DNA of 64,000 bases, taken from sequence record OR525698.1; one strand, given 5' to 3'. The notes beneath the pieces are model-generated. The model was not told where the DNA came from, did not search any database, and saw only the letters and a list, made by a program, of their open reading frames with translations. Every line of letters begins with the position of its first letter. Position 1 is the stretch's first letter. This document shows, one piece after another, positions 18,770-35,498 of the stretch. Position numbers and translations under genes: made by a program. The stretch comes from Escherichia phage vB-Eco-KMB43.

Positions 18770-19360
18770 TCAATAGCGTTTAGTCTTAAGAATGCCTTTA
18801 CTCTTTAGATGGTTAGCCTTTTTTAGTACGTCATCAGCATAACCTAATCCGGCTTTATAGTTCCATCCAGCATTGTAAGAAGCTAGCGCGAGTCGGATAT
18901 TACCGTTTCGAACATCCAGCCAGTATGCTAACTCATCCATCGCGTAGAATGCAGAAACCTCGCGATTCATGATAAAGTTGATAGTCTGGCGATCACTCAT
19001 TTTAACACCGCGCTTTGCATTTTTCGCTTTCACCGTTTTAAGGTAATTTTGAAATAATCCATAAGCATGATGATTTTTCTTTGGTGCTAAGTTTGCACCC
19101 GCGCTTGATTCTTGCCATGCGATACCCGCCAGGATGTGACCTAAACCCTTTCCGTTATAGCGAATATTCGGATGGTCCTTTTTCAACTTACCGCTTTTCT
19201 CGAATTGCTCGCCGTATTGATAGGCGAAATGTAAATTATCTAGTTGGTGTGCTGTAAAGTTGTCTATCGGCGCTTTTTTGATCGGTGCGCTAGTCGATGC
19301 GTGTGTAGCACCAACGGCTAGTGACAGACTCAATACTATCGCTTTTAGAACTTTTAACAT
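18770..19360 (-). CDS. secreted lytic transglycosylase-like protein (SLT domain)
   Basis: Signal peptide, then AWQESS, GLFQ and YNAG motifs typical of family 1 lytic transglycosylases. Confidence 0.6.
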   Translation of the reverse strand: MLKVLKAIVLSLSLAVGATHASTSAPIKKAPIDNFTAHQLDNLHFAYQYGEQFEKSGKLKKDHPNIRYNGKGLGHILAGIAWQESSAGANLAPKKNHHAYGLFQNYLKTVKAKNAKRGVKMSDRQTINFIMNREVSAFYAMDELAYWLDVRNGNIRLALASYNAGWNYKAGLGYADDVLKKANHLKSKGILKTKRY

Positions 19361-19941: not shown

Positions 19942-20269
19942 TAGTTAATTCTTTAGTAGCAAGATGAATACCATAAGCATCATGTGTAACTATATGCCAT
20001 TTTCTATAGTCCAAATGTGAACAACCGTCTGGATCTAGGTTAATAAGAGTTTCTCTCTCACTAGGATTATTTTTCCACAATTTTGTAATAGGATCGCACA
20101 TAATTCGACCTAGCGTACCATGAATAATCTCACAACGGTAAAGTTTTCCAGCAGTGAGATAGGCGCACCCGTCATAGTCGGTATAAACAAACACTTCTTT
20201 AACACTCATTTTAATACTCCTTTGTTGTTTCGATGGGGGTATATTACTACCCCCGATCATGTGTGTCAA
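19874..20269 (-). CDS. small hypothetical protein, GCSHL family (probable CDS 19874..20209)
   Basis: Track start lies in the promoter; ATG at 20209 with GGAGTATTAAA RBS; DPDGCSHLDYRKWHIV motif. Confidence 0.5.
   Translation of the reverse strand: MTHMIGGSNIPPSKQQRSIKMSVKEVFVYTDYDGCAYLTAGKLYRCEIIHGTLGRIMCDPITKLWKNNPSERETLINLDPDGCSHLDYRKWHIVTHDAYGIHLATKELTIDKFKFKEIPFVYWIRNLFKKG
20241..20269 (-). promoter_or_regulatory. early promoter (TTGACA -17- TAATAT) with GGGGGTA..TACCCCC inverted repeat
   Basis: tgtcaa at 20264-20269; inverted repeat 20235-20254. Confidence 0.6.
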
Positions 20270-20530
20270 CTACTTTTTCAAGATTTTTTTGATTGCATTC
20301 CAAAGACCTTTATTTCCAGGTTGTTTTGGTTCTTCGATCAGTGTCCATGTTCGACCGTCTAAGTGTGCACAATTTTTAAGACAAATAAAAATCTGGTGTC
20401 CCTTATCATCACGGATATAACCACTATTCGCAAATCTTTCATGTGGTGTATATTCATACAGTGTATTAGGTGTAATATACTTGCGGTTACTATAAGGTGT
20501 CATCACATACATCATGGTACTAACTCCCAA
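20270..20530 (-). CDS. small hypothetical protein, GCSHL family paralog
   Basis: CLKNCAHLDGRTWTLIEEP motif shared with neighbours. Confidence 0.5.
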   Translation of the reverse strand: MGVSTMMYVMTPYSNRKYITPNTLYEYTPHERFANSGYIRDDKGHQIFICLKNCAHLDGRTWTLIEEPKQPGNKGLWNAIKKILKK

Positions 20531-20706
20531 TTATCACCGCGAAGATGAGAACATCCACCATCAAGAAGGATCGTAATACGATAACCTATATCATCTTTGA
20601 TGTAACCGATTGTCGGTGGATTTTCGTAGTCTCGTGTCGGGGTAAAATCATACATCTTTCCTGGCGTAATATCTTGTCCTTTATTGCTATTGGTATAAAC
20701 TTTCAT
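20512..20706 (-). CDS. small hypothetical protein, GCSHL family paralog
   Basis: LLDGGCSHLRGDNWELVP motif. Confidence 0.5.
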   Translation of the reverse strand: MKVYTNSNKGQDITPGKMYDFTPTRDYENPPTIGYIKDDIGYRITILLDGGCSHLRGDNWELVP

Positions 20707-20727
20707 TTTCTTAATCTCCTATATTAA

Positions 20728-21426
20728 CTAACCACGGGTATAGTGTTCCAGAACAACTGTCAGATGAATATATTCTAATAAATCTTTCCAAAAGTCAACA
20801 TCTGGTTCTTCCGGCATACCGTTTTTCTTTGCCTCTTCACGAGCGAGTTTAACACGCTCGTAGAGATCTTTCAATTCTTCCCGCACATTATCAAAGGTTC
20901 TTTCTCCTAACTTACACGCTAAAATAGAAGAACGTCGCGCGAGCGGGAATTGTAGATCACCTGTCTGATAGATTTCAAGTAGCTGATAACCAACACGCAG
21001 AGCATGAGAAAGATCTTTCCAGTTACTGAAATACTTTTCAGATTTGGCTACCTGCTTTTTGAGATAGCCAGACAAACCCCACATACCAACATGATAGAAT
21101 TTATCTCGATGTGTTCGGATGTATTCCCATTCTCTGGAGGATTCAATCAACATGTTACTAGGAGCGTGCACCATGTCAATAGCGCCGATATCGCCTTTAC
21201 ATGCCAGATTGATAAACCGTTTTAGACTGAACATATTAACATCAATATCGTCTTTGGTGTTCTTGATACCTTGACCGCTAGTGCTTTGGTCATAGTGTTC
21301 TTTCATCGATCCTAAGATAATTTCTTTCGCAGTCGGAACAAAGATACCACGATAATCTTTATCGGAATTTTCAGTATCAAGGCCGTATAAGTGAGATCCG
21401 AAGACCATTTTAACCATTGTATGCAT
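20728..21426 (-). CDS. nucleotidyltransferase-fold protein (pol-beta/MNT-like GS...D.D motif) with C-terminal helical domain
   Basis: MVFGSHLYGLDTENSDKDYRGIFV fits the GS-x(9-13)-D-x-[DE] minimal nucleotidyltransferase signature. Confidence 0.55.
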   Translation of the reverse strand: MHTMVKMVFGSHLYGLDTENSDKDYRGIFVPTAKEIILGSMKEHYDQSTSGQGIKNTKDDIDVNMFSLKRFINLACKGDIGAIDMVHAPSNMLIESSREWEYIRTHRDKFYHVGMWGLSGYLKKQVAKSEKYFSNWKDLSHALRVGYQLLEIYQTGDLQFPLARRSSILACKLGERTFDNVREELKDLYERVKLAREEAKKNGMPEEPDVDFWKDLLEYIHLTVVLEHYTRG

Positions 21427-21470
21427 AATTAAACCCTCAGTTGATTAAGAGATTGCATCATATCATCATA

Positions 21471-21504
21471 AAACGAAAAAGCCAACCCTTTTCGGATTGG
21501 CTTG
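21471..21504 (-). terminator. rho-independent terminator after the grcA-like gene
   Basis: GCCAATCC-gaaaa-GGGTTGGC hairpin followed by a T-run on the minus strand. Confidence 0.65.
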
Positions 21505-21512
21505 ATGAAAAA

Positions 21513-21929
21513 TTAGAGAGATTCGGTAAAGGTACGAGCGATAACATCACGTTGCTGGTCTGGAGTCAGACTATTGAAGCGCACTGCGTAACCAGAAACG
21601 CGAATTGTAAGCTGCGGGTACTTCTCAGGATGTTCAACAGCGTCCAGCAACATTTCTCGTAACAATACGTTAACATTCAAATGCTGACCACCTTCGACAA
21701 CCGGAGCACCATTATCTACAATCACCGGACGGAAGCTAGTTGTGTGCAGTGCCAGCGAATCGACGTCTTCTGCGGTGATCACATGGTCTTCTGCGAAAGT
21801 TTTACTAACAATTACTTTAGCGCCGATCAGTGCTTTCGGTTCGGATACCAGAATCATAGGCGCGAAGTGTCCACCAATAATAGTACCTTTATGTTCACCT
21901 TTCATGATTTGAATTGCTTTAAATTCCAT
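21513..21929 (-). CDS. grcA: autonomous glycyl radical cofactor (GrcA/YfiD-like)
   Basis: C-terminal ~60 aa ([12 protein letters not shown]...[36 protein letters not shown]) near-identical to E. coli GrcA as recalled. Confidence 0.8.
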
Positions 21930-21939
21930 AATTCACCTC

Positions 21940-22065
21940 TTATAGATCAGGACGTTCGTCATTAATTTTACCAACCAAAACACCATAGAGTTTATCAGGT
22001 TGGACTTTACGATTCTTATTGATTTTAGCACGGAATCGACGAGCTACGCTATCTTTATTTTTCAT
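21940..22065 (-). CDS. possible small basic protein (41 aa), not in the ORF track
   Basis: ATG overlaps upstream stop (TAATG); stop overlaps the grcA RBS; translation MKNKDSVARRFRAKINKNRK... Confidence 0.3.
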   Translation of the reverse strand: MKNKDSVARRFRAKINKNRKVQPDKLYGVLVGKINDERPDL

Positions 22066-22556
22066 TAGTTGATACCTAAGCCAATGAAAATAGGTTGGTC
22101 TTCTACATTACCCATCCCAACACTAAGTCGATTTACTTCTAAAAACTGCAATACGCTGTCAGTAAATCCGCGCATGGTAGTATCTAGGATAAAAATTGTT
22201 TTGTCAAGACTACGACCTCGCCATGTGATCGGATTCAGGAAAGTTCGGATCGACGTACAATCTACATTTGAAATATTTACATTTTCACCGCGACCGCGAT
22301 CTCGGATCGTTTTGGCATGTCCCCGCGTCGTTGAAACGATAAAGACACTATAGCCTTTTCTCGTATAATGGTCATATAACTTGATTGTAGCGTCTGTATG
22401 CCCTGTCTGACGGCCTAAATTGATTGAGACAATGGAATCTAGGTCATCAGCAAAATTGCGTCGCTTACGGCGTTCTATGATGCAATTTACGGCAGAAATA
22501 CACGCAGCATAAATCAAATCTTTACTTTCTAATTCTAAATCAATGTCAATATTCAT
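22065..22556 (-). CDS. hypothetical protein
   Basis: ORF track; preceded by GC hairpin 22577-22607. Confidence 0.5.
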   Translation of the reverse strand: MNIDIDLELESKDLIYAACISAVNCIIERRKRRNFADDLDSIVSINLGRQTGHTDATIKLYDHYTRKGYSVFIVSTTRGHAKTIRDRGRGENVNISNVDCTSIRTFLNPITWRGRSLDKTIFILDTTMRGFTDSVLQFLEVNRLSVGMGNVEDQPIFIGLGIN

Positions 22557-22618
22557 GGTAAAGTCTCCAGTGAACGGGGAGAGATCCTTAGATTGTCTCC
22601 CCGTTGATGGTTAATATT

Positions 22619-23194
22619 TTATTTTGGATCTGGGAAATTCAATAGAGCATATTCTCCATAAAATTTCCTAGCTGCATTATCATAAGCGATTGCAGCTTCG
22701 ATTTCTGTGTCATATTGTCCAAGAACATGTCTTTGTAGGTTGACCATTATACTAGCTCTCCATTTCTTACGCAAATCCTTCCTGTTACACTTACTAACAC
22801 CCTTATACACACTAGAAAACTTTTTAGACTTCTTCTTTCTATTATGTTGATTTTGCGCGTCGGTTGCCTCCCTAAGATTTGGAGGATTGTTATTAGCAGG
22901 ATTACCGTCAATATGATCAATTAATCTAACTTGCGTCCCATGTTCTAGAAACCAAACAACCCTATGCACGAATAAATGAACTCTAGGAAGACCGTCATCT
23001 CTACTATGCCAAAATCGAAGATGACCATCTTTATTTGTTCTGACTTTAACTAAATCGCCGTGTTTATATCTACTCCCTAATGGTCGTCCTTTGATAGCTT
23101 TACTATCGACTCTATAATATAAGATACCCTCTATATGAGCATATCTAAGTTTTATCTCGTTTTGTAGGGATTCATCCCAATATTTAAAAGCCAT
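22619..23194 (-). CDS. free-standing HNH homing endonuclease with AP2-like domain
   Basis: HNH core IDHIDGNPANNNPPNLREATDAQNQHN and AP2-type YKGVS...W.A.I segment. Confidence 0.75.
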   Translation of the reverse strand: MAFKYWDESLQNEIKLRYAHIEGILYYRVDSKAIKGRPLGSRYKHGDLVKVRTNKDGHLRFWHSRDDGLPRVHLFVHRVVWFLEHGTQVRLIDHIDGNPANNNPPNLREATDAQNQHNRKKKSKKFSSVYKGVSKCNRKDLRKKWRASIMVNLQRHVLGQYDTEIEAAIAYDNAARKFYGEYALLNFPDPK

Positions 23195-23239
23195 TTTATA
23201 ATCCTCACAAAGCCAGCGATTAAGCTGGCTTGATTTTAG

Positions 23240-23629
23240 TTATACCGGGTCTGGATATACCTTTTTATCGAGTTCCATATGCGGTCCGTCTTTAAAAGTA
23301 ACCCAATCAACACCGCAGATAACAGGAACACCCAATTCTCGACCAGCTTGTTTAAATGCATCCGCGATCATGCGGTAGTATTTCATGTTCCATGTATCCT
23401 TATCTTTCGGATACGCTACAACGTCAACCGCGAAACCGTGAAGATGACGAGATTTCATAGTCTTAGATTTACCTTCCGCAACATATTTCTTTTGCGTTTC
23501 TAGACTACGTACACCTTCCGTAATACCAAAATCGACCGGAGTCAGTTCTAACGCACGATGAACGACTTTTACCAGGTCAGGATGCACACCAACAAGCCGA
23601 TCTTTGCTTCTTTGAGATAATTTAAACAT
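23240..23629 (-). CDS. peptidase M15-like protein (VanY/L-Ala-D-Glu peptidase fold), candidate endolysin
   Basis: SRHLHGFAVDV and DWVTFKDGPHMEL resemble the H-x6-D...H zinc site of M15 peptidases; no signal peptide. Confidence 0.6.
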   Translation of the reverse strand: MFKLSQRSKDRLVGVHPDLVKVVHRALELTPVDFGITEGVRSLETQKKYVAEGKSKTMKSRHLHGFAVDVVAYPKDKDTWNMKYYRMIADAFKQAGRELGVPVICGVDWVTFKDGPHMELDKKVYPDPV

Positions 23630-23657
23630 TATTCACCCCCTTTGTGAGTGATAATAT

Positions 23658-23849
23658 TTAGATTCCGGCGATCCTGCATAGAGTTCTTGTATTAGCACCA
23701 ATAAGGATAGCATTAACGACAACCATTCCCCAATCAACCCACGGATTATTATAAATGCTAAATCCGTTTGCTAGGCCAAATACAAGCATTCCGGTACACA
23801 TACTCAGAGCAATAATCAACATCACGGTAAAACCAAATGCAAATCTCAT
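23658..23849 (-). CDS. tiny hydrophobic membrane protein
   Basis: ORF track; 2 predicted TM segments. Confidence 0.45.
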   Translation of the reverse strand: MRFAFGFTVMLIIALSMCTGMLVFGLANGFSIYNNPWVDWGMVVVNAILIGANTRTLCRIAGI

Positions 23850-23850
23850 A

Positions 23851-24117
23851 TTATTTTCCTTTTCTCTGTTTACGTTTATAAAAGTAATACATTACCTCAT
23901 CGCGTCCGGTGATCCAACATGCTAGGGCGGTAAACAGGTTTACAATTCCCAACACACCTACGGATGCGGCGCTGTCAACAGACATAGGAACAGTAAAGGC
24001 CATAGCTAACATAGCAACGCCACAAATGACATTAAGCACCATTATAATAAGACCGAAGAAAACCATTGTCAATCCTCCGACACAAGAAAACCAACAATCA
24101 CGCCAGTGATAAGACAT
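23851..24117 (-). CDS. small membrane protein
   Basis: ORF track; hydrophobic core, basic C-terminus. Confidence 0.45.
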   Translation of the reverse strand: MSYHWRDCWFSCVGGLTMVFFGLIIMVLNVICGVAMLAMAFTVPMSVDSAASVGVLGIVNLFTALACWITGRDEVMYYFYKRKQRKGK

Positions 24118-24260
24118 GATGCGCCGCTAATCAGACAACCCGCACCAAGTGATTCCCACCAGATCAGAGAAGCGACAATAACACAGAATCCCCACACTAC
24201 CGCAATCACAACATAGGCAAGGGTCGCCCAAAACATATATTTGTTCATAATAAATCCCAT
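24069..24260 (-). CDS. tiny hydrophobic membrane protein
   Basis: ORF track. Confidence 0.4.
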   Translation of the reverse strand: MGFIMNKYMFWATLAYVVIAVVWGFCVIVASLIWWESLGAGCLISGASCLITGVIVGFLVSED

Positions 24261-24433
24261 TCACCAAACAAATAAGAAAAAAGCCATATCAACAGAAACG
24301 AGGCAATTGATCCGACAAGCAAAATGATATTAGAGAATCCGCCGTCTATCCAGGCGACAAAACAGAATACACCAGTATAGAAGCATAAACCCATTACAAA
24401 ACATACTATAAGCAACCATAGACAAAACGCCAT
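24245..24433 (-). CDS. tiny hydrophobic membrane protein
   Basis: ORF track. Confidence 0.4.
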   Translation of the reverse strand: MAFCLWLLIVCFVMGLCFYTGVFCFVAWIDGGFSNIILLVGSIASFLLIWLFSYLFGEWDLL

Positions 24434-24656
24434 AGAAAGCCCTCCAGTGAGCTAATTTAGTGCGGGTAGTACATTACCCTACCCGTATTGTTAATCATCG
24501 CAGAGCTTCTTCTAGCGCGATCCCAAACCATCCACAAACAACGCCCATACAGACAGCTACAAGAAGATTCATTCTCTCTTTAGGGATCATTGCAATCATA
24601 ACAACAACCATACAGAAAGCCATTACCATTGAAGTTAACATTTGTTCAACCATTTA

Positions 24657-24995
24657 TCACACCTTTAAAGTCATAGACGCATAAACATTAATGCCAGGCC
24701 AGTTAGGATCGCAATTATACTCAACATCCCACAAATAAAGCGGTTTAGATGTATCAGCCAAGTTTTTAAAATCTTCTACCCACATTTCAAGGCTATATGA
24801 TGGATAAACTAGGCTATCATATCCGCCGTAACGTTGGCCTACTGGTCGGTCAGTAAAAACTACCTCAAGATCCGGTAATTCTTTTTCAAGGATAACCGCC
24901 AGCGCATAAATCAGACGGTCTTCCTTGTTACGCTGCCGAAGGACCGTTGTCAGTTGGTTTTTCTGGTTCACTAGCAAGCACCTCCACATTTTCAC
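24657..24995 (-). CDS. hypothetical protein
   Basis: ORF track; start uncertain (overlaps next ORF). Confidence 0.45.
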   Translation of the reverse strand: MKMWRCLLVNQKNQLTTVLRQRNKEDRLIYALAVILEKELPDLEVVFTDRPVGQRYGGYDSLVYPSYSLEMWVEDFKNLADTSKPLYLWDVEYNCDPNWPGINVYASMTLKV

Positions 24996-25248
24996 AGAAT
25001 GAAATTTTCACAGACACAATTTTACCATAAGTGAAGAATGAATATACATTATCGAGATATTCAACGTCACCTACAATCACATCAAACTGCGGATCAGCAA
25101 CCACCGCAACATATTCTACCAGTTCATCAAGAGAATGCAACTTAATTTCATCAATTCGGCTGTATTTGGTCGCATCTTTAATTTTAAAACCAAGTTCTTT
25201 CAGCTTGTCAATCAGAATTTCACGCGGAGTTTCAAACAGTTTGCTCAT
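24928..25248 (-). CDS. hypothetical protein
   Basis: ORF track; GAGGATTATATTATG RBS and start. Confidence 0.5.
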   Translation of the reverse strand: MSKLFETPREILIDKLKELGFKIKDATKYSRIDEIKLHSLDELVEYVAVVADPQFDVIVGDVEYLDNVYSFFTYGKIVSVKISFCENVEVLASEPEKPTDNGPSAA

Positions 25249-25269
25249 AATATAATCCTCACATTAAAT

Positions 25270-25470
25270 CTAAAATTTGTTAACGACGAATTGCATAATT
25301 AGACTAATCACAAACATTGCAAACCAAGTATAAATGCAACAGATAAAAGCTACATACAATTCAATCTGGTCAGAGAATACACCGGGTAAAAGCATTAGCA
25401 AAATAACAACAGTAAAGACGCTAGCGATACCCGCAACAAAACCAATATCATTTTTACTAATCGTCATCAA
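25270..25470 (-). CDS. tiny hydrophobic membrane protein
   Basis: ORF track. Confidence 0.45.
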   Translation of the reverse strand: MMTISKNDIGFVAGIASVFTVVILLMLLPGVFSDQIELYVAFICCIYTWFAMFVISLIMQFVVNKF

Positions 25471-25664
25471 GTCACCGTTTTGTAAAGAAACACAATAAAA
25501 TCCCAGACAAAAAAGACAGTGAAAATAATCATCGTCAAGACAATAAACACTGTCAGATTTTCATCGTTAGTTAATTCATGACCGTCCATCCATATAATCA
25601 CCAGATAAAACATCGAAATCAAGGAGGCGAATACCAAATTATAAAACTCTTCCTTTAATGACAT
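25467..25664 (-). CDS. tiny hydrophobic membrane protein
   Basis: ORF track; ATGA overlap with neighbour. Confidence 0.45.
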   Translation of the reverse strand: MSLKEEFYNLVFASLISMFYLVIIWMDGHELTNDENLTVFIVLTMIIFTVFFVWDFIVFLYKTVT

Positions 25665-25665
25665 A

Positions 25666-25848
25666 CTACACCTCGTCGCGGCTTAAGTCAACAGCAATTG
25701 CATACAGCATAATTAATATGCTAGCAGATCCGAGAATCAATGCACCCTCACATTTTGAAACTCGCTCATCAAAATGTAACATTATCCATCCGAGGATGTT
25801 AAAGGCGCAGACCGCGCCTATGTTCGCTAACCAATTAATCTTTTTCAT
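25666..25848 (-). CDS. tiny hydrophobic membrane protein
   Basis: ORF track. Confidence 0.45.
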   Translation of the reverse strand: MKKINWLANIGAVCAFNILGWIMLHFDERVSKCEGALILGSASILIMLYAIAVDLSRDEV

Positions 25849-25856
25849 AATATACC

Positions 25857-26183
25857 TTAGAAAGAAACAGTTTTCAAGAAATCCAGATTTTTAGTACCGA
25901 AAACAGAAAAGTAGTGTTCTCCTTTTTCGGTTTTAGAGAAAGCGATTGTCTTCTCTACATGGTGACGGAAGCCAGACAGACGATCACCCAGGTCAAGGCG
26001 GCAAGCGTAAGTAGTGCCGTTTTCGAAAGTAACCTCGATTTGAGTTTTGTCATATTCGCTTTCATAGGCTTTTGCTGCTGCGTCCTGTGCTTTACGCTCG
26101 AAGTCTTCGAAGTGGAATACTTCGTTTGCGTTAGCGAATACAGAAGATTCAGAGAAGATAACTTTAACAGATACTGGTTTCAT
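25857..26183 (-). CDS. hypothetical protein
   Basis: ORF track; promoter cassette with conserved leader upstream. Confidence 0.55.
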   Translation of the reverse strand: MKPVSVKVIFSESSVFANANEVFHFEDFERKAQDAAAKAYESEYDKTQIEVTFENGTTYACRLDLGDRLSGFRHHVEKTIAFSKTEKGEHYFSVFGTKNLDFLKTVSF

Positions 26184-26225
26184 TTTGATACTCCTTAGTA
26201 GTTCGTGTTTCGTTTCGATGGGTGT

Positions 26226-26254
26226 ATTATGCTATACACCCTCTCTCGTGTCAA
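26226..26254 (-). promoter_or_regulatory. early promoter (TTGACA -17- CATAAT) with conserved leader
   Basis: tgtcaa at 26249-26254; attatg at 26226-26231. Confidence 0.65.
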
Positions 26255-26262
26255 CAACTTTT

Positions 26263-26451
26263 TTAGTCTTTTTTCATAATTTCTAGAGCTGTTTCTACAG
26301 CACCTTTCCAACCCTCCCACATAATGGACATAGTAAGGAAGTTAAAGCACCCGCAGGAATCAACCTTTTTAGAGATAAACCATTCTACAAACGCTTCGCT
26401 CATACCATGCTCTTTAGCGGATTCGCGTAATTGTTCAATTTGGTCTTCCAT
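26263..26451 (-). CDS. small hypothetical protein
   Basis: ORF track. Confidence 0.45.
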   Translation of the reverse strand: MEDQIEQLRESAKEHGMSEAFVEWFISKKVDSCGCFNFLTMSIMWEGWKGAVETALEIMKKD

Positions 26452-26473
26452 AGTATCACCTCAACACTTAACG

Positions 26474-26668
26474 TTATTCAAACTCAAACGGTCTATTCAA
26501 CCTATTGTAAAAGTACATATAACAAGCAAAATTATGCTTTGGCTGTACCGTATCAGATAGACACGCTTTTACAGCCTCGCGGTCCGATGGGTCTACACCC
26601 TCAGCTTTAAGTAATGCTAAAATCTGGTTATAGCGTACTCTTAGTTGTACTAATGGTTTATCCCCCAT
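26474..26668 (-). CDS. small hypothetical protein
   Basis: ORF track. Confidence 0.45.
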   Translation of the reverse strand: MGDKPLVQLRVRYNQILALLKAEGVDPSDREAVKACLSDTVQPKHNFACYMYFYNRLNRPFEFE

Positions 26669-26677
26669 ATTACCCCC

Positions 26678-26905
26678 TTATAGTTGATCAGCAATGTATG
26701 CGGTGCATTTGCGGAGTTTAGCCATAGCACCACCTTTCATGTCGCTTGCGCCTACAATGTTCATGATCTCTAAGCGATCAGCCGGATTCAGTCTAGTAGC
26801 CCAGATCTGGTTAGCCAGTTCCATTTTACCCATCTGCGGTTCCATCTCAAACATTTCACGCTCAAAGTCGATAATTTCTTTTGCTGCGTCTTTAAAGTTA
26901 ATCAT
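26678..26905 (-). CDS. small hypothetical protein
   Basis: ORF track; promoter upstream. Confidence 0.5.
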   Translation of the reverse strand: MINFKDAAKEIIDFEREMFEMEPQMGKMELANQIWATRLNPADRLEIMNIVGASDMKGGAMAKLRKCTAYIADQL

Positions 26906-26934
26906 TTTGGTCCTCCCGTTTCGTTGATGGTTGT

Positions 26935-26963
26935 ATTGTAGGGGAGTTATCCTCCCATGTCAA
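26935..26963 (-). promoter_or_regulatory. early promoter (TTGACA -17- TACAAT)
   Basis: tgtcaa at 26958-26963; spacer contains GGGAG..CTCCC. Confidence 0.55.
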
Positions 26964-26971
26964 CACTTTTA

Positions 26972-27157
26972 TCAGAAATATGCAATATAGTTTGCCAGTC
27001 CTACAGAGTCATCATTCGGCATTGCTTTTACCGCCAGTTCAAACCCTGCTTCAACTTTCTGTTTAGCGGATTCTTCGTTATAACCCCAGATGACCAGAAT
27101 AGCTACTACGTTTTCTTTGCTTACTGCTTTCAGTGCTTTAGTGATGCGACGTGCCAT
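26972..27157 (-). CDS. small hypothetical protein
   Basis: ORF track; promoter and conserved leader upstream. Confidence 0.5.
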   Translation of the reverse strand: MARRITKALKAVSKENVVAILVIWGYNEESAKQKVEAGFELAVKAMPNDDSVGLANYIAYF

Positions 27158-27203
27158 AATTTGATTCTCCGTTTAAGAAAGCGTGTTTCGTTTCGATGGG
27201 TGT

Positions 27204-27232
27204 ATTATGCTATAGGCGTGATCTGGTGTCAA
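27204..27232 (-). promoter_or_regulatory. early promoter (TTGACA -17- CATAAT) with conserved leader
   Basis: tgtcaa at 27227-27232; leader CATCGAAACGAAACAC...GGAGAATCAAATTATG. Confidence 0.65.
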
Positions 27233-27258
27233 CAACTTTTTTAAAAAAATTTTAGGCA

Positions 27259-27286
27259 ATAAAAAAGCCACTCCGAAGAGTGGCTT
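27259..27286 (-). terminator. rho-independent terminator (UUCG tetraloop hairpin)
   Basis: AGCCACTC-ttcg-GAGTGGCT perfect 8 bp stem followed by a T-run on the minus strand. Confidence 0.75.
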
Positions 27287-27290
27287 ATAG

Positions 27291-27434
27291 GGAAGGTAGC
27301 GAATCTTCCTTGTCTCCAACCTGCTAGCGGCCTAGCAAGTGAATGCTTTAGCGTACCGGATCACCCCATACGCTGTAATAAATGCGGCTAGGTGACGTCC
27401 AAATCATTCTAACCGCGCTGTCTTTAGTTCACTA
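27291..27434 (-). ncRNA. ORF-free structured 3' region, possible small RNA (speculative)
   Basis: 144 nt without ORF between gene end and terminator; several local stem-loops (GGAAGG..CTTCC; GCGGCTAG..CTAACCGC). Confidence 0.2.
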
Positions 27435-27653
27435 TTATTTATATCGCTTTCTCTCGCGACGTTTTTGATCTTCTTCCTTGATAGAGTTAAACGCATCAAA
27501 AAGACACATGACACTGATAATGAACATAACCGTATTTTCTACGATATCCCACGGCTTCGCATCAGTACAGATCCCCCAAACGGTAAGAAATGCAAATAGT
27601 GCAGAAGAGATCACAAGCATGATACTTGCTAAGATATAAAAAGTCATTTTCAT
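27435..27653 (-). CDS. small membrane protein
   Basis: ORF track; hydrophobic N-terminal half, basic tail. Confidence 0.45.
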   Translation of the reverse strand: MKMTFYILASIMLVISSALFAFLTVWGICTDAKPWDIVENTVMFIISVMCLFDAFNSIKEEDQKRRERKRYK

Positions 27654-27844
27654 GGTTTTACCTCAATTCTTCGATATTCATCACACATCCACGCAGTAAG
27701 CAAGAATCCCAGCACATAAGCAACAAAATACGTTAATGCTTCTTCTGGTTCGGTGCTATGCGCCATCATCAGACCAGCGAGAAAGGTCTTAACAATTACA
27801 TTTAAAATAATTAGCCACGCAAATAATTTCATCGTTTGCCCCAT
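27650..27844 (-). CDS. tiny hydrophobic membrane protein
   Basis: ORF track. Confidence 0.45.
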   Translation of the reverse strand: MGQTMKLFAWLIILNVIVKTFLAGLMMAHSTEPEEALTYFVAYVLGFLLTAWMCDEYRRIEVKP

Positions 27845-28068
27845 TTCGGTCGAGTCTTTTCAAACTTATACATCCCGTAACAATCTCGAATCATCCACGT
27901 AACAAGAGCACCAGTCAACACAGACAATACACAGAAGAAGTAAAACGGTCCGGTTGCATTATCAACATGAGCAAGCCAGGTAAAGAAAACACATGCTAAG
28001 AATGTGAAGAACATCATAAAACACAAGAAAGCAAAATATTTTATGCTACTCATAGCGCCACCATACAA
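27829..28068 (-). CDS. small membrane protein
   Basis: ORF track. Confidence 0.45.
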   Translation of the reverse strand: MYGGAMSSIKYFAFLCFMMFFTFLACVFFTWLAHVDNATGPFYFFCVLSVLTGALVTWMIRDCYGMYKFEKTRPKWGKR

Positions 28069-28156
28069 CAGATCATAAGAAAACCCAACGCAATAAGAAT
28101 TGCATCAAATTTAGTGAACTCCGGTCCACATATCAACATCATTCGTTCCTGTTCAT

Positions 28157-28399
28157 TCATAGATCACAGAGCCATCTTAAAGCACCACATAAAGCGAGCA
28201 GAATACTAGGTATAAACGAGATCAAAACAAGTTTGCAAAAATCATCTAAGGTAATACCGGAATAGATACCAACTGTAACAACACCGATCATCAGACACAG
28301 AAAGAAAACAAATGCAATCAGAAACAAAGTATTGCTAAACAGTTTAGTGATCATTAGACACCCCACGACGATCAATTTCAAAAACTTTTTTATCATCAA
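28157..28399 (-). CDS. small membrane protein
   Basis: ORF track. Confidence 0.45.
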   Translation of the reverse strand: MMIKKFLKLIVVGCLMITKLFSNTLFLIAFVFFLCLMIGVVTVGIYSGITLDDFCKLVLISFIPSILLALCGALRWLCDL

Positions 28400-28547
28400 C
28401 GAAGCATGTCACAACTGCCTCGTTGACTTCCGCAAATTGTTGTGTTACCCACTTAAGGTCAGAGCGAAACAATGTTCTATTAATAACAAATGTTTTACCT
28501 TTCTTATCCATACCCATAAATTTTGCTTTAACCATATCCAATTCCAT
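28344..28547 (-). CDS. dmd: Dmd-like antitoxin (inhibitor of host RnlA/LsoA-type toxins)
   Basis: MEL.KV.FMG...DD..W.TQQ.AEVN.A.V..F.DDKKV.E.D.RG pattern matches T4 Dmd along its full length as recalled. Confidence 0.75.
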   Translation of the reverse strand: MELDMVKAKFMGMDKKGKTFVINRTLFRSDLKWVTQQFAEVNEAVVTCFVDDKKVFEIDRRGVSNDH

Positions 28548-28556
28548 ATTATCACC

Positions 28557-28715
28557 TTATTTGCTAATCGCTAAACCCAATCCGAAGAGAGCACCCGATG
28601 CTACAGTATACCCGAAAGTTTCAAAGGCAGTAAAGATATCTAAGCCGCCAGCTAACAGAGTTGCAGTAAACAGAGTACCAGCTACGAACATAAAAGTTTT
28701 ACCGATAAATTTCAT
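28557..28715 (-). CDS. possible tiny hydrophobic/Gly-rich protein (~52 aa), not in the ORF track
   Basis: ATG at 28715 preceded by GGAGAATCAAA RBS and promoter cassette. Confidence 0.4.
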   Translation of the reverse strand: MKFIGKTFMFVAGTLFTATLLAGGLDIFTAFETFGYTVASGALFGLGLAISK

Positions 28716-28747
28716 TTTGATTCTCCTTTCGTTTGTTTGTGGGGGGT

Positions 28748-28776
28748 ATCTTACTACCCCCGTTTCATGTTGTCAA
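28748..28776 (-). promoter_or_regulatory. early promoter (TTGACA -17- TAAGAT) with GGGGGTA..TACCCCC inverted repeat
   Basis: tgtcaa at 28771-28776; inverted repeat 28741-28761. Confidence 0.6.
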
Positions 28777-28782
28777 CTGTTT

Positions 28783-29157
28783 TTAAGAAAATTTTACTTC
28801 GTCTACAATGTCTTTCATGACATTGATTTCCATTCCGGTCAGAACACGTTGGAACATGTGCTGCACATACGCTTTCAGGTATTCATTTGATGGCTTGCTA
28901 TCGAAAGTCTTTTTAGTGTAGTAGTCATCACCGAAAGCTACTGTAATTACATTTTCGTCGTCGTTCCAAGCGATATAAGCAAATTTGCCGTTATCCCAGA
29001 AGCGAGCACTAATTGCTACTTTTGTTGAATCGAATCCTACTTCGCTGTGAGATTCAAGAACTACTTGCGTGCCAGTTTCTTTATGAATGTAGTAGCGGGA
29101 TACTAAGTCAAAGTTACGGGTGTAGTGACATTCGAATTTATCTTTAAACATCATCAT
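28783..29157 (-). CDS. hypothetical protein
   Basis: ORF track; promoter cassette and RBS upstream. Confidence 0.55.
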   Translation of the reverse strand: MMMFKDKFECHYTRNFDLVSRYYIHKETGTQVVLESHSEVGFDSTKVAISARFWDNGKFAYIAWNDDENVITVAFGDDYYTKKTFDSKPSNEYLKAYVQHMFQRVLTGMEINVMKDIVDEVKFS

Positions 29158-29195
29158 TTTTGATTCTCCTAAGTGTGTTTCGTTTCGATATGTGC

Positions 29196-29224
29196 ATTAT
29201 GCTATAGTCGTTTATGGTTGTCAA
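29196..29224 (-). promoter_or_regulatory. early promoter (TTGACA -17- CATAAT) with conserved leader
   Basis: tgtcaa at 29219-29224; attatg at 29196-29201. Confidence 0.65.
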
Positions 29225-29229
29225 CACCT

Positions 29230-29261
29230 AAAAACAAAAAACCCCGAAAAATTTTTCGGGG
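29230..29261 (-). terminator. rho-independent terminator after 57B
   Basis: Perfect palindrome CCCCGAAAAATTTTTCGGGG followed by a long T-run on the minus strand. Confidence 0.75.
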
Positions 29262-29268
29262 TATAGAA

Positions 29269-29739
29269 TTACAGTTTGGTCGTCCACTCCAGGTCTAGAT
29301 CTTCGACATACTCATGAGATCGGACAATCTCTAAATCGAACTCAAGGTCAGTGCCAAATTTACGCGCACCAACATCATAAGAAAGCGTGATATGCGGTAC
29401 ATATTCAGGATAATCCCACGTCGCACCTAAAGCAGTGCCGATATCGTGTCTGAATTGCATGTAGTCGCTTTCAAATGCCAGCACAAGCGCATTAGTACCG
29501 GATTGAGTTTCAAACACTTTCAGATGGCATAGAGAGCCTAAGAACTTCTCCCCTTCTTCTGGGATAAACGGAACATAGACACGAGAATATAAGATAGTGC
29601 TATGCAGTTTATCACGAGGAACGGCATTAGGCAGATCGTAGAACTCCTGCAATTTTTCAATGCGGTCTAGTGTATCCTCAGTGAATTTAACCGCCGCATA
29701 TGTACCTTTAACGGATTCTCTAAACGGGGTCATAATCAA
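29269..29739 (-). CDS. 57B: 2H phosphoesterase, Acb1-type anti-CBASS nuclease (T4 gene 57B position)
   Basis: Two H-x-T/S motifs (HSTILY, HITLSY); position next to 57A and gene 1 as in T4. Confidence 0.75.
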   Translation of the reverse strand: MIMTPFRESVKGTYAAVKFTEDTLDRIEKLQEFYDLPNAVPRDKLHSTILYSRVYVPFIPEEGEKFLGSLCHLKVFETQSGTNALVLAFESDYMQFRHDIGTALGATWDYPEYVPHITLSYDVGARKFGTDLEFDLEIVRSHEYVEDLDLEWTTKL

Positions 29740-30002
29740 GCCTCCGTGATCAGTTCTACTTCCTCTTCTGCTTCTTCTGCGGCTTCGTCTTTAGGGAGAA
29801 GTGCTTTCACTTCTTCGACGATAGCATCAAGGGAAACAGTCCCGTTTTCGTCTGGCTGAATACCCAGAATGCGTACCAGTTCCATCAATACACGCTCACG
29901 ATCTTTCAGTTGGCCTTCTAAGAATGCGGCCTTTTCTTGAGTGTCAAACAGACGTACTTTCAGGACATTAATCATTTGTTCATGCTGATTGGACATATTC
30001 AC
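29736..30002 (-). CDS. 57A: tail fiber assembly chaperone
   Basis: Small acidic helical protein resembling T4 gp57A as recalled; synteny with gene 1. Confidence 0.7.
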   Translation of the reverse strand: MNMSNQHEQMINVLKVRLFDTQEKAAFLEGQLKDRERVLMELVRILGIQPDENGTVSLDAIVEEVKALLPKDEAAEEAEEEVELITEA

Positions 30003-30028
30003 ATCTCCTACTTGTTGATAACTTTTTA

Positions 30029-30685
30029 TTAAATGTTCGCGAGAATCGCGCTTTCAAATTCTTCTAATGTACCATTATTTATGATAATGGTTTCACTGTC
30101 AATAGGCAAAATTCCTTTTTCGGTGGAGTGAGTCGATACAATACCAGTATCACGCTGAATATGCAACACCTTAGCACCCATAGCACGCACGAGAGCAATT
30201 TCAATAGGCTGACGCACATCAACCACTACAAAATAACCTTCTTCATTTTTGCGCTTCATAAACTCATTAACGAAGAGATTACACCAATAAAGCGGATTGA
30301 TCAAGTTAACCATTATATCAGTACCGAGAGTGGTTAACATGAGACGAATAGACCAGACGTTATTATGTTTTTCGCCAATCTCATTAACGACCTTGTAAAT
30401 CTCAGCCAGACGATCACAAGTAAAGGAACTACCTCCATACTTCGAATCTAGCATAAGCAGACACTGAATAAACCACTTATGCGCGGTATAGGTATCAATA
30501 CCTAGATCGGATTCTCTGTCACGCCCTAACCCGTCAAAGTCAAGATAAGTCAGACCTAAGTCTGGTTGACATTCGCACAATATTTCTTTGATCGGTGCTG
30601 CCAGTTGATAACTATGTCCATCAATGATTAACGCGGCAGTGTCTTTTCCTACTCGCTTTTTACCACAAAGTGCAATCAATTTCAT
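30029..30685 (-). CDS. 1: deoxynucleoside monophosphate kinase
   Basis: P-loop GKKRVGKDT and LGTD, MGAKVLH, THSTEKG segments match T4 gp1 as recalled. Confidence 0.85.
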   Translation of the reverse strand: MKLIALCGKKRVGKDTAALIIDGHSYQLAAPIKEILCECQPDLGLTYLDFDGLGRDRESDLGIDTYTAHKWFIQCLLMLDSKYGGSSFTCDRLAEIYKVVNEIGEKHNNVWSIRLMLTTLGTDIMVNLINPLYWCNLFVNEFMKRKNEEGYFVVVDVRQPIEIALVRAMGAKVLHIQRDTGIVSTHSTEKGILPIDSETIIINNGTLEEFESAILANI

Positions 30686-30700
30686 TATATAAGCCTCTTA

Positions 30701-31291
30701 TTACTTTCTAAAAGCAGGGTGCATAGCTTTAATACCTTCCACCCGCTGACGATCCGCCGCCTGAATTGCTGGGCGAGGAACGATCAGTTGACCATCACGT
30801 TCAATGCTCATTGTTTTAAAGGGAAGAATTGCAGTACACACCAGAGATTCATGCATATCATCGGTGTATGTTAACTCAAGTTCCCCCAATTGTGAACACC
30901 AACAACCATAAAAGTTAAAAGTGCACACAATGTTACGTCGTTCGTTGTCCATCATGTGAACTTGAACGGCTTCCGGCATTGAATCCTTCCACGCAGTGGA
31001 GTTACCGTTATTGTAGTCTACTATAGAAAGCATCCATGTGTAAAGGTTTAGATAACTTTCCAAATGCTCATCGACAATAAACCGGACTACCAACGGGTCA
31101 AACTCCACATGACTAGAAGGATAATCAGCAACCGCCAAACCATATTGACCAGCAACTTGCTTAGTCGGTGGAATGGTTATAGCCGGAAGTGTAACACCTT
31201 GAGCATTTAAAGTAAAGCCTTTTGTTAGTTGTCCATCTGGAATATTGATCTGCCAGTTGCTGGGGTTAGCATAGTTAAAGAGATTGGACAT
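30701..31291 (-). CDS. 3: tail completion / sheath stabiliser protein
   Basis: Position between gene 1 and gene 2 as in T4; similar size; sequence not independently verified. Confidence 0.6.
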   Translation of the reverse strand: MSNLFNYANPSNWQINIPDGQLTKGFTLNAQGVTLPAITIPPTKQVAGQYGLAVADYPSSHVEFDPLVVRFIVDEHLESYLNLYTWMLSIVDYNNGNSTAWKDSMPEAVQVHMMDNERRNIVCTFNFYGCWCSQLGELELTYTDDMHESLVCTAILPFKTMSIERDGQLIVPRPAIQAADRQRVEGIKAMHPAFRK

Positions 31292-31480
31292 TTTCGATTC
31301 CTCAAATGAAAATATTTATTAACAATTGTCGCTTTGCGACGTGCCGGAGGCACTGACTACTTTTTAACCGAAACAAATTTCTATTATTCTAAAGATCTTT
31401 CTTCGTTTTGGTTATGTTTTAACCAATAACTATATTTTTATACAGTAATAAATAAAACGGGTACTATACGAGGACTTCTT

Positions 31481-31735: not shown

Positions 31736-31763
31736 TAAAAAAAAGCCCGTCAATGACGGGCTT
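31736..31763 (-). terminator. rho-independent terminator after gene 2
   Basis: AGCCCGTC-att-GACGGGCT stem followed by T8 on the minus strand. Confidence 0.75.
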
Positions 31764-31767
31764 AATG

Positions 31768-33698: not shown

Positions 33699-35498
33699 AT
33701 GCTAATGTTTAATAACTCCGTTAAATGGTTTACCGGAATTGTAGAAAACAGGGAAGACCCATTAATGCTGGGGCGTGTTCAGGTTAGGATTCATGGTATA
33801 CATCCCTCGCTATCCGCACACGGTGACATTCAAGGTCTCCCAACCGAAGATCTATTATGGATTACGCCAGTACAAGATATTACAAGCGCGGCGATCTCCG
33901 GTATAGGTCAAAGCCCTACTGGTATTGTTGAAGGTTCAATGGTATTTGGTTTGGCTTTAGATGAACGTTATTTAAACTGCGTTATTCTGGGTACTATTGC
34001 CGGACAATATACAGAGAAACCACTCACTACAGAAGGTTTTTGCGACCCTTCTGGTGCATATCCTCGTTATATTGGTAATGATGTTAATATTCTTGCTCGT
34101 GGCGGTATTAACCCAGAAACCGGACAAACAACAAAACCTGATAGTGTCTATATTCGAGATGAAAACACTGGAGTTGCAGTAAATCCAGACGACGAGCCAT
34201 TAGACCAAATTCCGGTTGATGATAATCCTGATTTTACAATAGAAAAAATGCTGCGGGGCGATGAGGGATATCGCGAGAAATGGTATCTTGATTCAGAAGG
34301 ATATCCGACAATAGGCATCGGGCATTTGATCATTTATAAGAAAACCAGTGATCTGGGTATTATCAATAATGAACTTTCTAAGCTGGTAGGGCGTGAAGTT
34401 ACAAACGGAAGACTTACCGCCGAAGAAGTTAGTAAAGTATTTGCCGACGATATAGAAAAGACTCGTCGTGATATGCGCAAACATCCACGAATTGCACCTG
34501 TCTATAATAAATGTAATGCTTCTCGTCGTATGGCATTAGAAAATATGGCGTTTCAAATGGGTGTTGGTGGATTGGGTAAATTTAAGAATAGTCTTGCTGC
34601 GATGTTAGCGGAAGAATGGAAACAAGCCTATGATGGATTACGTCAATCTGTATGGGCTAACCAAACTCCAGGACGATCCAGCCGTGTTTCTAAAATTATT
34701 TTAACTGGTAACTTAGAATCATATGGCGTAATTGCTCCAAAGAAAGATGAATCTGTTTCTGATGATCCGCGAGCACGTTTGAGAAATGCCCGTATTGCTG
34801 CCTATAAGACGCAGAGAGCAGAAGAAGACCCAGAAGCACCGTTTACCCCACAAGACACACGAATCATGTTTAAAGAGCCTAAGAGTTCGTATTCTGCGAG
34901 GTATCCTTATAACCATGTGTACGAGTCAGAGAGCGGTCATATTATCGAGATTGATGATACTCCTTCTCACGAACGTTATCACCGCAAACATCCTTCTGGT
35001 ACATTTGAAGAAACCAGACCGGACGGAACGAGGGTAGAAAAGATTGAGGGTGATGATTATCTGATCGTTAAGCAAGGCCGGAAAGTCAACGTTAAGGGTA
35101 ATTTGCAAGTTGTTGTTGAAGGTGACGCGCAAGTTTATTATATGGGTAATGTAATGCAAACCGTTGATGGTAACGTCACTGAATTTATTCGTGGCAATGT
35201 TAATCAGACCGTTGAAGGTACTGCTAACATGCATGTTGTAGGTGATGTTACCGCTCAGCTTGACGCTAATTTAACGGCTAATGTCAAGGGTAATGCTGAA
35301 TTAATGATCGAGGGTAACACTACCGAAACAATTAAAGGTAACTATGATTTAACCGTTGAGGGTAATTTTAATATGACCGTCAATGGCACTAAATCAGATC
35401 AGGTTAATGGTGACTGGTCCCGTAATTGTGGTGCAAGCGTTAAAGATATTGCATCTGGTACAGTTAAAATTGATGGTAGCCGTATTGATCTTGGGTGA
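33699..35498 (+). CDS. 5: baseplate hub / cell-puncturing protein with lysozyme domain and C-terminal beta-helix
   Basis: Lysozyme motif DSEGYPTIGIGHL; C-terminal VxGxxxxx repeats (VEGDAQV, VDGNVTE, VEGTANM, IEGNTTE). Confidence 0.92.
   Translation: MLMFNNSVKWFTGIVENREDPLMLGRVQVRIHGIHPSLSAHGDIQGLPTEDLLWITPVQDITSAAISGIGQSPTGIVEGSMVFGLALDERYLNCVILGTIAGQYTEKPLTTEGFCDPSGAYPRYIGNDVNILARGGINPETGQTTKPDSVYIRDENTGVAVNPDDEPLDQIPVDDNPDFTIEKMLRGDEGYREKWYLDSEGYPTIGIGHLIIYKKTSDLGIINNELSKLVGREVTNGRLTAEEVSKVFADDIEKTRRDMRKHPRIAPVYNKCNASRRMALENMAFQMGVGGLGKFKNSLAAMLAEEWKQAYDGLRQSVWANQTPGRSSRVSKIILTGNLESYGVIAPKKDESVSDDPRARLRNARIAAYKTQRAEEDPEAPFTPQDTRIMFKEPKSSYSARYPYNHVYESESGHIIEIDDTPSHERYHRKHPSGTFEETRPDGTRVEKIEGDDYLIVKQGRKVNVKGNLQVVVEGDAQVYYMGNVMQTVDGNVTEFIRGNVNQTVEGTANMHVVGDVTAQLDANLTANVKGNAELMIEGNTTETIKGNYDLTVEGNFNMTVNGTKSDQVNGDWSRNCGASVKDIASGTVKIDGSRIDLG

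Follow-up and report, generated by a model that had tools for sequence, protein, structure and literature searches.

Escherichia phage vB-Eco-KMB43 (sequence record OR525698.1) was analysed over a stretch of 64,000 nucleotides (nt), here called the window, in which the minus strand between positions 23,240 and 25,848 carries a gene for a predicted murein peptidase preceded in transcription order by a run of ten small, mostly hydrophobic open reading frames (ORFs). The phage type of the window is Krischvirus, i.e. an RB49-like, T4-type coliphage, with 97-99% identity to phages FL04, JSE and RB49. A megablast search with positions 22600-26200 recovered 58 phage records, all of them Krischvirus, at 95-99% identity (one at 90-95%), the closest being FL04 (98.6%). 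The GC skew separates leftward early genes, up to about 33 kb, from rightward late structural genes, in agreement with the JSE annotation, and a spike in the AT skew (+0.20 at 24001-26000) coincides with the stretch of small ORFs. Taken as a whole, we read the locus with considerable confidence as the known RB49-type endolysin gene together with early accessory genes for membrane mini-proteins, which are not the lysis partners of the endolysin, those partners being encoded elsewhere. The features on which this reading draws are collected in Table 1. The ORF starts used are those backed by PHROG profiles and by annotators, with which the ten ORFs between 23658 and 25848 correspond to RB49 ORF103-112; comparisons across 12 genomes refer to the window plus 11 related genomes.

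Table 1. Features of the endolysin locus and of related genes in the window (aa, amino acids; TM, transmembrane helix; pN/pS, ratio of nonsynonymous to synonymous polymorphism)
Feature	Position	Strand	Evidence or remark
RI antiholin homolog, 100 aa, N-terminal signal-like segment	16280..16582	-	PF24205, 1.6e-23
Vs.1 homolog, SLT lytic transglycosylase domain	18770-19360	-	PF01464, 26.1 bits, cutoff 21.3
HNH-AP2 free-standing homing endonuclease gene	22619..23194	-	HNH_3 2.6e-10; AP2 2.1e-05
Endolysin, zinc L-alanyl-D-glutamate peptidase (M15C), 129 aa	23240..23629	-	EndoRB49 (RB49p102)/LysECD7 ortholog
Endolysin codons 104-129, last 81 nt, replacement segment	23240..23320	-	62% to RB49, against 97.7% for nt 1-309
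Predicted RNA hairpin pairing endolysin Shine-Dalgarno and AUG	23619..23664	-	15-bp main stem and 3-bp outer stem
ORF A, 63 aa membrane mini-protein, directly upstream of endolysin	23658..23849	-	RB49 ORF103; pN/pS 0.22; intact in 12/12
ORF B, 71 aa, two TM, basic C-terminal tail	23851..24066	-	RB49 ORF104; pN/pS 0.15
ORF C, 59 aa, two TM, start overlaps ORF D stop (ATGA)	24069..24248	-	RB49 ORF105
ORF D, 62 aa, two TM	24245..24433	-	RB49 ORF106; pN/pS 0.56
ORF E, 52 aa, two TM; kept in L023 and L017	24495..24653	-	RB49 ORF107
ORF F, 104 aa, soluble, GTG start, module core	24657..24971	-	RB49 ORF108; pN/pS 0.11
ORF G, 106 aa, soluble, 44-nt overlap with ORF F, module core	24928..25248	-	RB49 ORF109; pN/pS 0.08
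ORF H, 65 aa, two TM	25270..25467	-	RB49 ORF110
ORF I, 65 aa, two TM	25467..25664	-	RB49 ORF111
ORF J, 60 aa, two TM; kept in distant lineages	25666..25848	-	RB49 ORF112
ORF K, 108 aa, LPD25 (large polyvalent protein associated domain)	25857..26183	-	PF18840, 3.2e-14; RB49 ORF113
Predicted sigma70-type early promoter TTGACA-17-CATAAT, PeSL type	26226..26254	-	RB49 Pe:57746; PMC4122927
gp5 baseplate hub with T4 e-type lysozyme domain	33699..35498	+	domain 34239-34724, 42.6% to T4 e, E 8e-37

The peptidase carries the motifs SRHLHGFAVDV (residues 60-70) and DWVTFKDGPHMEL (residues 108-120), and was recovered with the Pfam family Peptidase_M15_4 (33.9 bits, E 4.8e-08, cutoff 25) and with the endolysin family PHROG 465 (5.5e-63). 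A phmmer search of the PDB gave matches far beyond chance to 23ri (E 2e-77) and 8q2g (E 3e-74), whose titles are respectively 'l-alanoyl-d-glutamate peptidase bacteriophage RB49 complex with Zn2+' and 'LysECD7 endolysin'. The protein is about 91% identical to EndoRB49 (RB49 ORF102) overall, with residues 1-103 identical, and contains the zinc ligands H62, D69 and H117 in addition to D114 and W109. H62, D69, D114 and H117 are invariant across 45 aligned homologs, and the AlphaFold model obtained with these homologs (mean predicted local distance difference test score, pLDDT, of 92) superimposes on 8q2g with a template-modelling score of 0.91-0.94 and a root-mean-square deviation of 1.5 Å. H62 and H117 are the named zinc ligands of EndoRB49, in which a role of W109 near the active site has also been described (PMC10487532); these ligands and the conserved W109 were studied by mutagenesis and nuclear magnetic resonance, and endolysin activity of the RB49 ortholog was demonstrated in vitro (PMC8140593; PMC10487532). 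No 19-residue window of the protein is sufficiently hydrophobic for a signal or TM segment, which implies that an endolysin of this kind requires a holin for access to the wall. By homology the ORF at 23240-23629 is the cytoplasmic, signal-less, zinc-dependent M15C L-alanyl-D-glutamate peptidase endolysin of Krischvirus; the initial annotation of this DNA, made from the letters and their translations, had correctly recognized its M15 zinc-site motifs, its lack of a signal peptide and its candidacy as the endolysin. The assignment itself is already known, the biochemistry of EndoRB49 and LysECD7 having been published and their structures solved. As a phage endolysin the family is widespread (found in 1249 records), and in a Mu-like prophage it occurs in a cassette with the order Phage_holin_3_1, M15 peptidase and DUF2570.

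The genes around the peptidase follow the order rI, tk, tk.4, vs, vs.1, regB, nrdC.11, vs.6, vs.8, endolysin, small ORFs, dmd, 57B, 57A, 1 and 3, and the corresponding order around the lysozyme gene e of T4 is vs.6, vs.7, vs.8, denV, ipII, ipIII, e, nudE, e.2-e.8, tRNAs, ipI, 57B, 57A, 1 and 3. Lying between vs.8 and 57B, the peptidase thus stands where T4 has e, pointing to a non-orthologous replacement of the T4 lysozyme in place. Consistent with this, RB49 and phi-1 are counted in a 2010 review as phages 'with no apparent gene e' (PMC3014915), and T4 e searched against 99% of the JSE genome and the window gave the lysozyme domain of gp5 as its sole match. The earlier statement that the window has no T4 e-type lysozyme gene therefore stands for a free-standing e and needs amending for gp5, which carries an e-type domain. 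We rejected gp5 as the endolysin because it is a virion protein conserved in T4, whose endolysin is e; likewise Vs.1, a second murein-active candidate, was set aside as being conserved in T4 too, where e serves. Phages with the window endolysin allele are propagated isolates in which no other endolysin was found, and these searches leave the peptidase as the sole soluble candidate for the endolysin that the genome offers. A tRNA scan of positions 1-64000 returned zero tRNA genes, and an Rfam scan of 20000-32000 matched no family.

The ten small ORFs upstream of the endolysin show the properties of genuine genes. The ungapped orthologs retrieved are intact in every compared genome that has one (8-12 of the 12 per ORF), with pN/pS values of 0.08-0.59; Shine-Dalgarno sequences are correctly spaced ahead of the ORFs, and the junctions between them mostly range from an overlap of 44 nt to a gap of 3 nt. 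By these sequence criteria all ten are real genes. Each falls into a PHROG of its own, of unknown function, a search of NCBIfam returned no match for any protein, and a tblastn search of 50,697 phage records with the concatenated small proteins gave matches in the 58 Krischvirus records only. Eight of the ten are hydrophobic (grand average of hydropathy 0.8-1.8), and the topology prediction that the initial annotation had proposed as a check, run here, gives about two TM helices for these eight. That annotation was right about the reality and the one- or two-helix type of the ORFs, and its count of nine, with seven hydrophobic, becomes ten and eight with the 52-aa ORF at 24495-24653, which it had omitted. 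The membrane mini-ORFs have been in RB49 annotations since 2003-2006 and were listed as TM proteins in 2006: TMHMM predicted two TM helices for RB49 ORF103, 104, 106, 107, 110, 111 and 112 (Nolan 2006), and by the same table about half of the RB49 ORFs with predicted TM helices fall between ORF103 and ORF124 (Nolan 2006, Additional file 2). A recent gene-family origin was rejected: in a paralogy test of eleven mini-proteins only the pair I-P reached z = 5 against shuffles, a borderline similarity, which argues that they are not a recently duplicated family. As for the two soluble members, profiles of ORFs G and F found no match in the PDB (best E 0.26 and 0.42), and a single-sequence AlphaFold model of ORF G (pLDDT 56) was inadequate for a fold search. 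A second run of two-TM mini-proteins, P, Q and R, lies at 27435-28068 (-) and corresponds to RB49 ORF118-120; P (72 aa) starts with MKM and has a basic tail, Q has 64 aa as the listed ORF and 60 aa by the annotated start, and R 79 aa and 74 aa, respectively. P, Q and R and the run ORF103-112, within some 5 kb, account for about half of the predicted TM-helix ORFs of RB49. E and D are separated by 61 nt, the one gap of any size in the cluster, and in it lies a stem-loop, CGGGTAG-N9-CTACCCG at 24460-24486 (-), without a T-run.

Elements of this arrangement extend beyond the genus. Three metagenomic lineages, with endolysins 95%, 82% and 78% identical, carry a module in the order K (the LPD25 gene), J, one or two two-TM ORFs, G, F, E, one to four two-TM ORFs, endolysin and vs.8, and K heads the module in the loci L020-L023. 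J, G, F and E, and in one lineage C, were detected by phmmer in the distant lineages, where the other mini-proteins are unrelated ones of like size and shape; the ORF adjoining the endolysin in particular is not homologous between lineages. The comparison delineates a conserved K-J-G-F-E core, around which the number and identity of the other mini-proteins vary, and its persistence well beyond the genus marks the K-to-endolysin module as less plastic than the neighboring ORFs L to R. Within Krischvirus, ORF E falls into two allele classes about 84% identical and ORF I into classes about 86% identical, and ORF H was not detected in JSE, Whisky and Makalu_001. Mosaicism is evident in the window as well, in that ORFs E, I, M and N (24495-24653, 25270-25664, 26474-26905) are present as alleles 82-87% identical between flanks of 97-99%, and JK32 has extra DNA between ORFs C and E. 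The gene at the 57B position of locus L017 (2704-3159) matches the Pfam family Acb1, an anti-CBASS phosphodiesterase family; together with dmd (antitoxin) in the hyperplastic region of Krischvirus, this suggests that the region holds counter-defence genes.

The predicted early promoter lies directly ahead of ORF K, the first gene of the predicted unit. The next early promoter predicted downstream in RB49 is Pe:52389, with none other before the endolysin, and no late promoter was predicted in RB49 between 48756 and 64518 (Nolan 2006). Similarly, an exact copy of the late promoter box, TATAAATA, was not found on the minus strand of the window in 23630-27435. Given the promoter before K and the tight packing of the ORFs, K through A and the endolysin look like a single early transcription unit, and we predict that the endolysin is the terminal cistron of this unit, ahead of the homing endonuclease gene. 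The novel ORFs of RB49 were reported to be co-expressed with early genes (Nolan 2006). Near-perfect TTGACA-N17-xAxAAT promoters occur on the same strand at 26226-26254, 26935-26963, 27204-27232, 29196-29224 and 30074-30102; G+C-rich stem-loops at 27265-27286 and 29241-29262 precede some early promoters and represent PeSL cassettes known from RB49 and phi1. A repeated core is common to two of the promoter regions, at about 26200-26260 and about 27180-27240.

At the junction of ORF A and the endolysin the transcript is predicted to fold into a hairpin that covers the endolysin start (-12.5 kcal/mol, z = -2.9). The main stem opens with the UAA that terminates ORF A, and the 5' arm holds the octamer TCTAAATA (23655-23662), a 7/8 match to the late box located 25 nt ahead of the endolysin ATG, canonical boxes of the window being found at 27-33 nt. 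The hairpin sequence is identical in 11 of the 12 genomes, AV108 having two extra G. The loci L021, L023 and L017 have other leader and arm sequences, each of which folds into a hairpin covering the Shine-Dalgarno sequence and AUG (z -3.3 to -4.3); no such hairpin was found by folding the Mu-like prophage homolog. We judged conservation from these per-lineage folds and from ranks among neighboring genes, in which the pairing probability of the endolysin start placed it 2nd of 26, 8th of 26, 1st of 17 and 3rd of 27 genes compared at the respective loci. In T4, gene e is silenced on early transcripts by a hairpin and expressed from late promoters inside it (PMC3014915). By the same logic the hairpin probably represses translation of the endolysin from the early transcript. 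Release could come from ribosomes terminating on ORF A or, alternatively, from a weak late promoter inside the 5' arm, as for T4 e.

The initial annotation had proposed the mini-ORFs as candidate holins, antiholins or spanins. Each of these functions is provided for elsewhere. A 218-aa protein of JSE, encoded after the tail-fibre genes, matches Phage_holin_T (PF11031) at 1.6e-60; 58 phage records encode a protein that shares 95% identity or more with it, a number equal to that of the records holding the small-ORF region, and the T holin was found in 58/58 Krischvirus records. The spanin genes pseT.2 and pseT.3 are annotated in JSE at 132346-133061, adjoining pseT, and Kongari et al. (PMC6139136) include RB49, JSE and Phi1 in the families of T4 i-spanins and o-spanins. 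The RI antiholin gene of the window is preceded by an exact late promoter, TATAAATA at 16616-16623 (-), 33 nt ahead of its ATG. This gene adjoins tk, as in T4. Reasoning from T4, and given that all four homologs are present, we propose that the endolysin would accumulate in the cytoplasm and reach the murein once the T-type holin opens the inner membrane, with RI modulating the timing of lysis, and that the PseT.3/PseT.2 spanins would then disrupt the outer membrane.

Searches of the mini-proteins themselves agree with this division of labor. ORFs A-J matched no holin family in Pfam, PHROG-lysis or NCBIfam, and the RI antiholin family (PF24205) found no match among them; when ORF B was compared exhaustively by phmmer with 1.84 billion representatives, three hits were obtained, none linked to a holin family. 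Spanin features were likewise not seen on reading the sequences, the hydrophobic ORFs (52-71 aa) being filled by two TM helices with no canonical lipobox or periplasmic domain. With T holin, RI and PseT.3/PseT.2 already present, an early promoter ahead of the run and no holin-family match, the holin, antiholin or spanin reading of the mini-ORFs is not supported; the initial annotation had named a separate canonical endolysin/holin pair elsewhere as part of what would refute it, and the T holin supplies the holin half of that pair. The predicted proteins are thus unlikely to be holin, antiholin or spanins. Our guess, worded as such because no experiment on any of them was found, is that the phage makes them early on as accessory proteins of the inner membrane, with candidate roles in superinfection exclusion like that by T4 Imm or in interference with host membrane proteins or defences.

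Several points weigh against this interpretation. Besides the guessed role, the holin and spanin genes were located in near-identical complete genomes, outside the 64-kb window, and the promoter and timing assignments are predictions, not mapped transcripts. With respect to the hairpin, TCTAAATA departs from the late box in its canonical form, the endolysin leaders aligned with MAFFT yielded a weak RNAalifold consensus (-1.26 kcal/mol), attributable to hairpins in different registers, and the upstream ORF of L017 ends well before the hairpin, so that coupling to termination cannot be general. Finally, ORF B has the shape of a class II holin, with two TM helices and the basic C-terminal tail KRKQRKGK, and a two-TM ORF stands immediately before the endolysin in all four lineages.

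A sharper version of our accessory-role guess, which we regard as a tentative possibility, holds that the mini-proteins act in superinfection exclusion or immunity as functional analogues of T4 Imm and Sp, and that by inserting early into the inner membrane they would keep secondary phages from DNA entry or from lysis from without. T4 Imm, an early protein of 83 aa with hydrophobic stretches, has the format of ORFs A-E and H-J, and a phmmer comparison of Imm and Sp with every ORF of JSE and the window gave no hit at E <= 1, so that the phages have no detectable homolog of either; early expression, allele replacement and gain or loss are also what would be expected of competition genes. However, this support is by analogy, without sequence similarity to Imm, and the proposal leaves eight or more such proteins unexplained and offers no counterpart in Imm/Sp systems for the conserved soluble partners G and F. 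Rather improbable, in our estimate, is a broader scheme in which K (LPD25), J, G, F and E and the changing two-helix mini-proteins would form a single membrane-acting system, co-transcribed and translationally linked with the endolysin and serving either an Imm/Sp role or a second layer of lysis control, the T4 e-like hairpin having arisen independently after the gene replacement.

Slightly less credible still is that one or more of the mini-proteins, chiefly ORF A or B, is a dedicated holin, pinholin, antiholin or lysis-timing factor, perhaps acquired with the endolysin that replaced e. We leave this small chance to one mini-protein on account of the outline of ORF B and the constant two-TM ORF before the endolysin. 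D, C, B, A and the endolysin follow one another at short distances, the stop codon of ORF A is where the hairpin covering the endolysin start sets in, and in the Mu-like prophage a recognized holin stands ahead of a peptidase of this family; the two TM helices and KRKQRKGK tail of ORF B are accompanied by a sub-threshold match to Pfam Phage_holin_3_5 (E 0.032), and among ORFs A-J only ORF B has such a highly charged C-terminal tail, which recurs in ORFs P and R further upstream. Yet that match is far under the 27-bit cutoff, ORF B has no holin-family relative among the 1.84 billion representatives, and the ORF that adjoins the endolysin changes identity from lineage to lineage; an early and not a late promoter is predicted, and T holin, RI antiholin and spanins are all in place. 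That the small ORFs are chance frames in a T-rich spacer is exceedingly improbable: they are very short, match no curated family and include two (D or I) skipped by some annotators, but intact orthologs with pN/pS below 1 for each, correctly spaced Shine-Dalgarno sequences, end-to-end packing that leaves nothing else room, and the detection of E, F, G and J in lineages as distant as 78-82% endolysin identity speak against it.

Alongside this reading of the locus as an established endolysin with early accessory genes, a distinct feature concerns the 3' end of the endolysin gene and the homing endonuclease gene that follows it. The AP2 match of the endonuclease scores 25.2, under the cutoff of 33.3. 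The gene is present in six and absent from six of the 12 genomes, in perfect linkage with the version of endolysin nt 310-390, and the records with the endonuclease gene at 99% or more number 13, as do those with the window endolysin allele at that level; JSE and G2248 are among the phages with this allele. In endonuclease-free genomes the endolysin ends in ...YPDPK*, and in the window it is the endonuclease ORF that ends in ...FPDPK*, followed by identical downstream DNA. These matching ends and the identical DNA beyond them imply that the endonuclease sits within the ancestral endolysin frame, its gene reusing the last five codons and stop (PDPK*) of the old endolysin. As read from the alignments, the endonuclease element supplies a substitute endolysin C-terminal coding segment with its own stop, leaving the host gene whole. 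Nucleotides 310-390 are 86% identical to the corresponding stretch of the lineage with the 95% identical endolysin, which has the same CGV-type C-terminus without an endonuclease. The arrangement is compatible with intronless homing with co-conversion of the linked tract (PMC2988022), and the putative target is likely to be the active-site-coding stretch of the endonuclease-free allele.

The substitute segment alters conserved positions: W105 and G107, near-invariant among the 45 aligned homologs, are C105 and V107 in the window allele. Of the 120 best homologs, about 100 have xWGG ahead of DW; the window has CGV, and CGV or CGI occurs only in P0001-P0006. EndoT5 has FGA at the WGG positions (PMC10487532), and the endolysin model stays confident despite C105 and V107 (pLDDT 92). 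WGG before DW is a family habit and not a catalytic requirement. A sequencing artefact as the source of the divergent C-terminus was rejected, since it is common to 13 independent isolates.

The finding as a whole matters little in itself, the enzyme being published and structurally solved and the mini-ORFs long annotated. Three particulars merit further work: a natural endolysin allele altered at two near-invariant residues, the apparent product of a homing endonuclease seated inside the gene without disrupting it; a predicted start-masking hairpin that mirrors the classic control of T4 e on an unrelated gene; and a mini-protein module conserved beyond the genus, without assigned function. 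LysECD7, a relative of the window endolysin, is already under study as an antibacterial.

Comparison with known systems places the window endolysin closest to EndoRB49 and LysECD7 of Krischvirus phages, which are the same gene at the same locus, EndoRB49 differing from the window allele at 12 of the last 26 residues, where the window segment comes from another lineage. The M15C fold and catalytic residues are shared with EndoT5 (PDB 2mxz; phmmer E 3e-20) and with Serratia ChiX (PDB 5opz; phmmer E 2e-32), both at a Foldseek probability of 1.0. ChiX, unlike the window phage endolysin, is a bacterial enzyme, and it cooperates with a holin-like protein in chitinase secretion. EndoT5 is calcium-activated via a loop that EndoRB49 lacks (PMC10487532). 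The lysozyme gene e of T4 shares map position, strand and lysis role with the window endolysin, but its product is a muramidase and the window endolysin a peptidase, the two proteins being unrelated. The sequestration of the ribosome site by a hairpin on read-through early transcripts of T4 e (PMC3014915) is predicted likewise for the window endolysin, whereas the T4 structure has two exact TATAAATA late promoters inside and the window hairpin only TCTAAATA. The syntenic e-57B interval of T4 contains a tRNA cluster, in contrast to the Krischvirus window, which is free of tRNA genes. T4 Imm has the small, hydrophobic, early format of the mini-proteins, though similarity in sequence is absent by phmmer.

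The hyperplastic regions of RB49 and phi1 with their PeSL cassettes (Arbiol 2010; Comeau 2014) have, as here, near-perfect TTGACA-N17-TATAAT-like early promoters before small ORFans and show indels and allele replacements between close relatives, as does the window region; the K-to-endolysin stretch differs from them in being one long unit without internal PeSLs. The free-standing homing endonucleases of T-even phages (seg, mob) share with the window gene the HNH nuclease domain and a presence/absence polymorphism in near-identical phages, and have, as in the window, a sharply bounded foreign tract alongside (PMC2988022). Unlike them, the window gene lies inside the original frame of its target, for which it supplies a substitute 3' segment.

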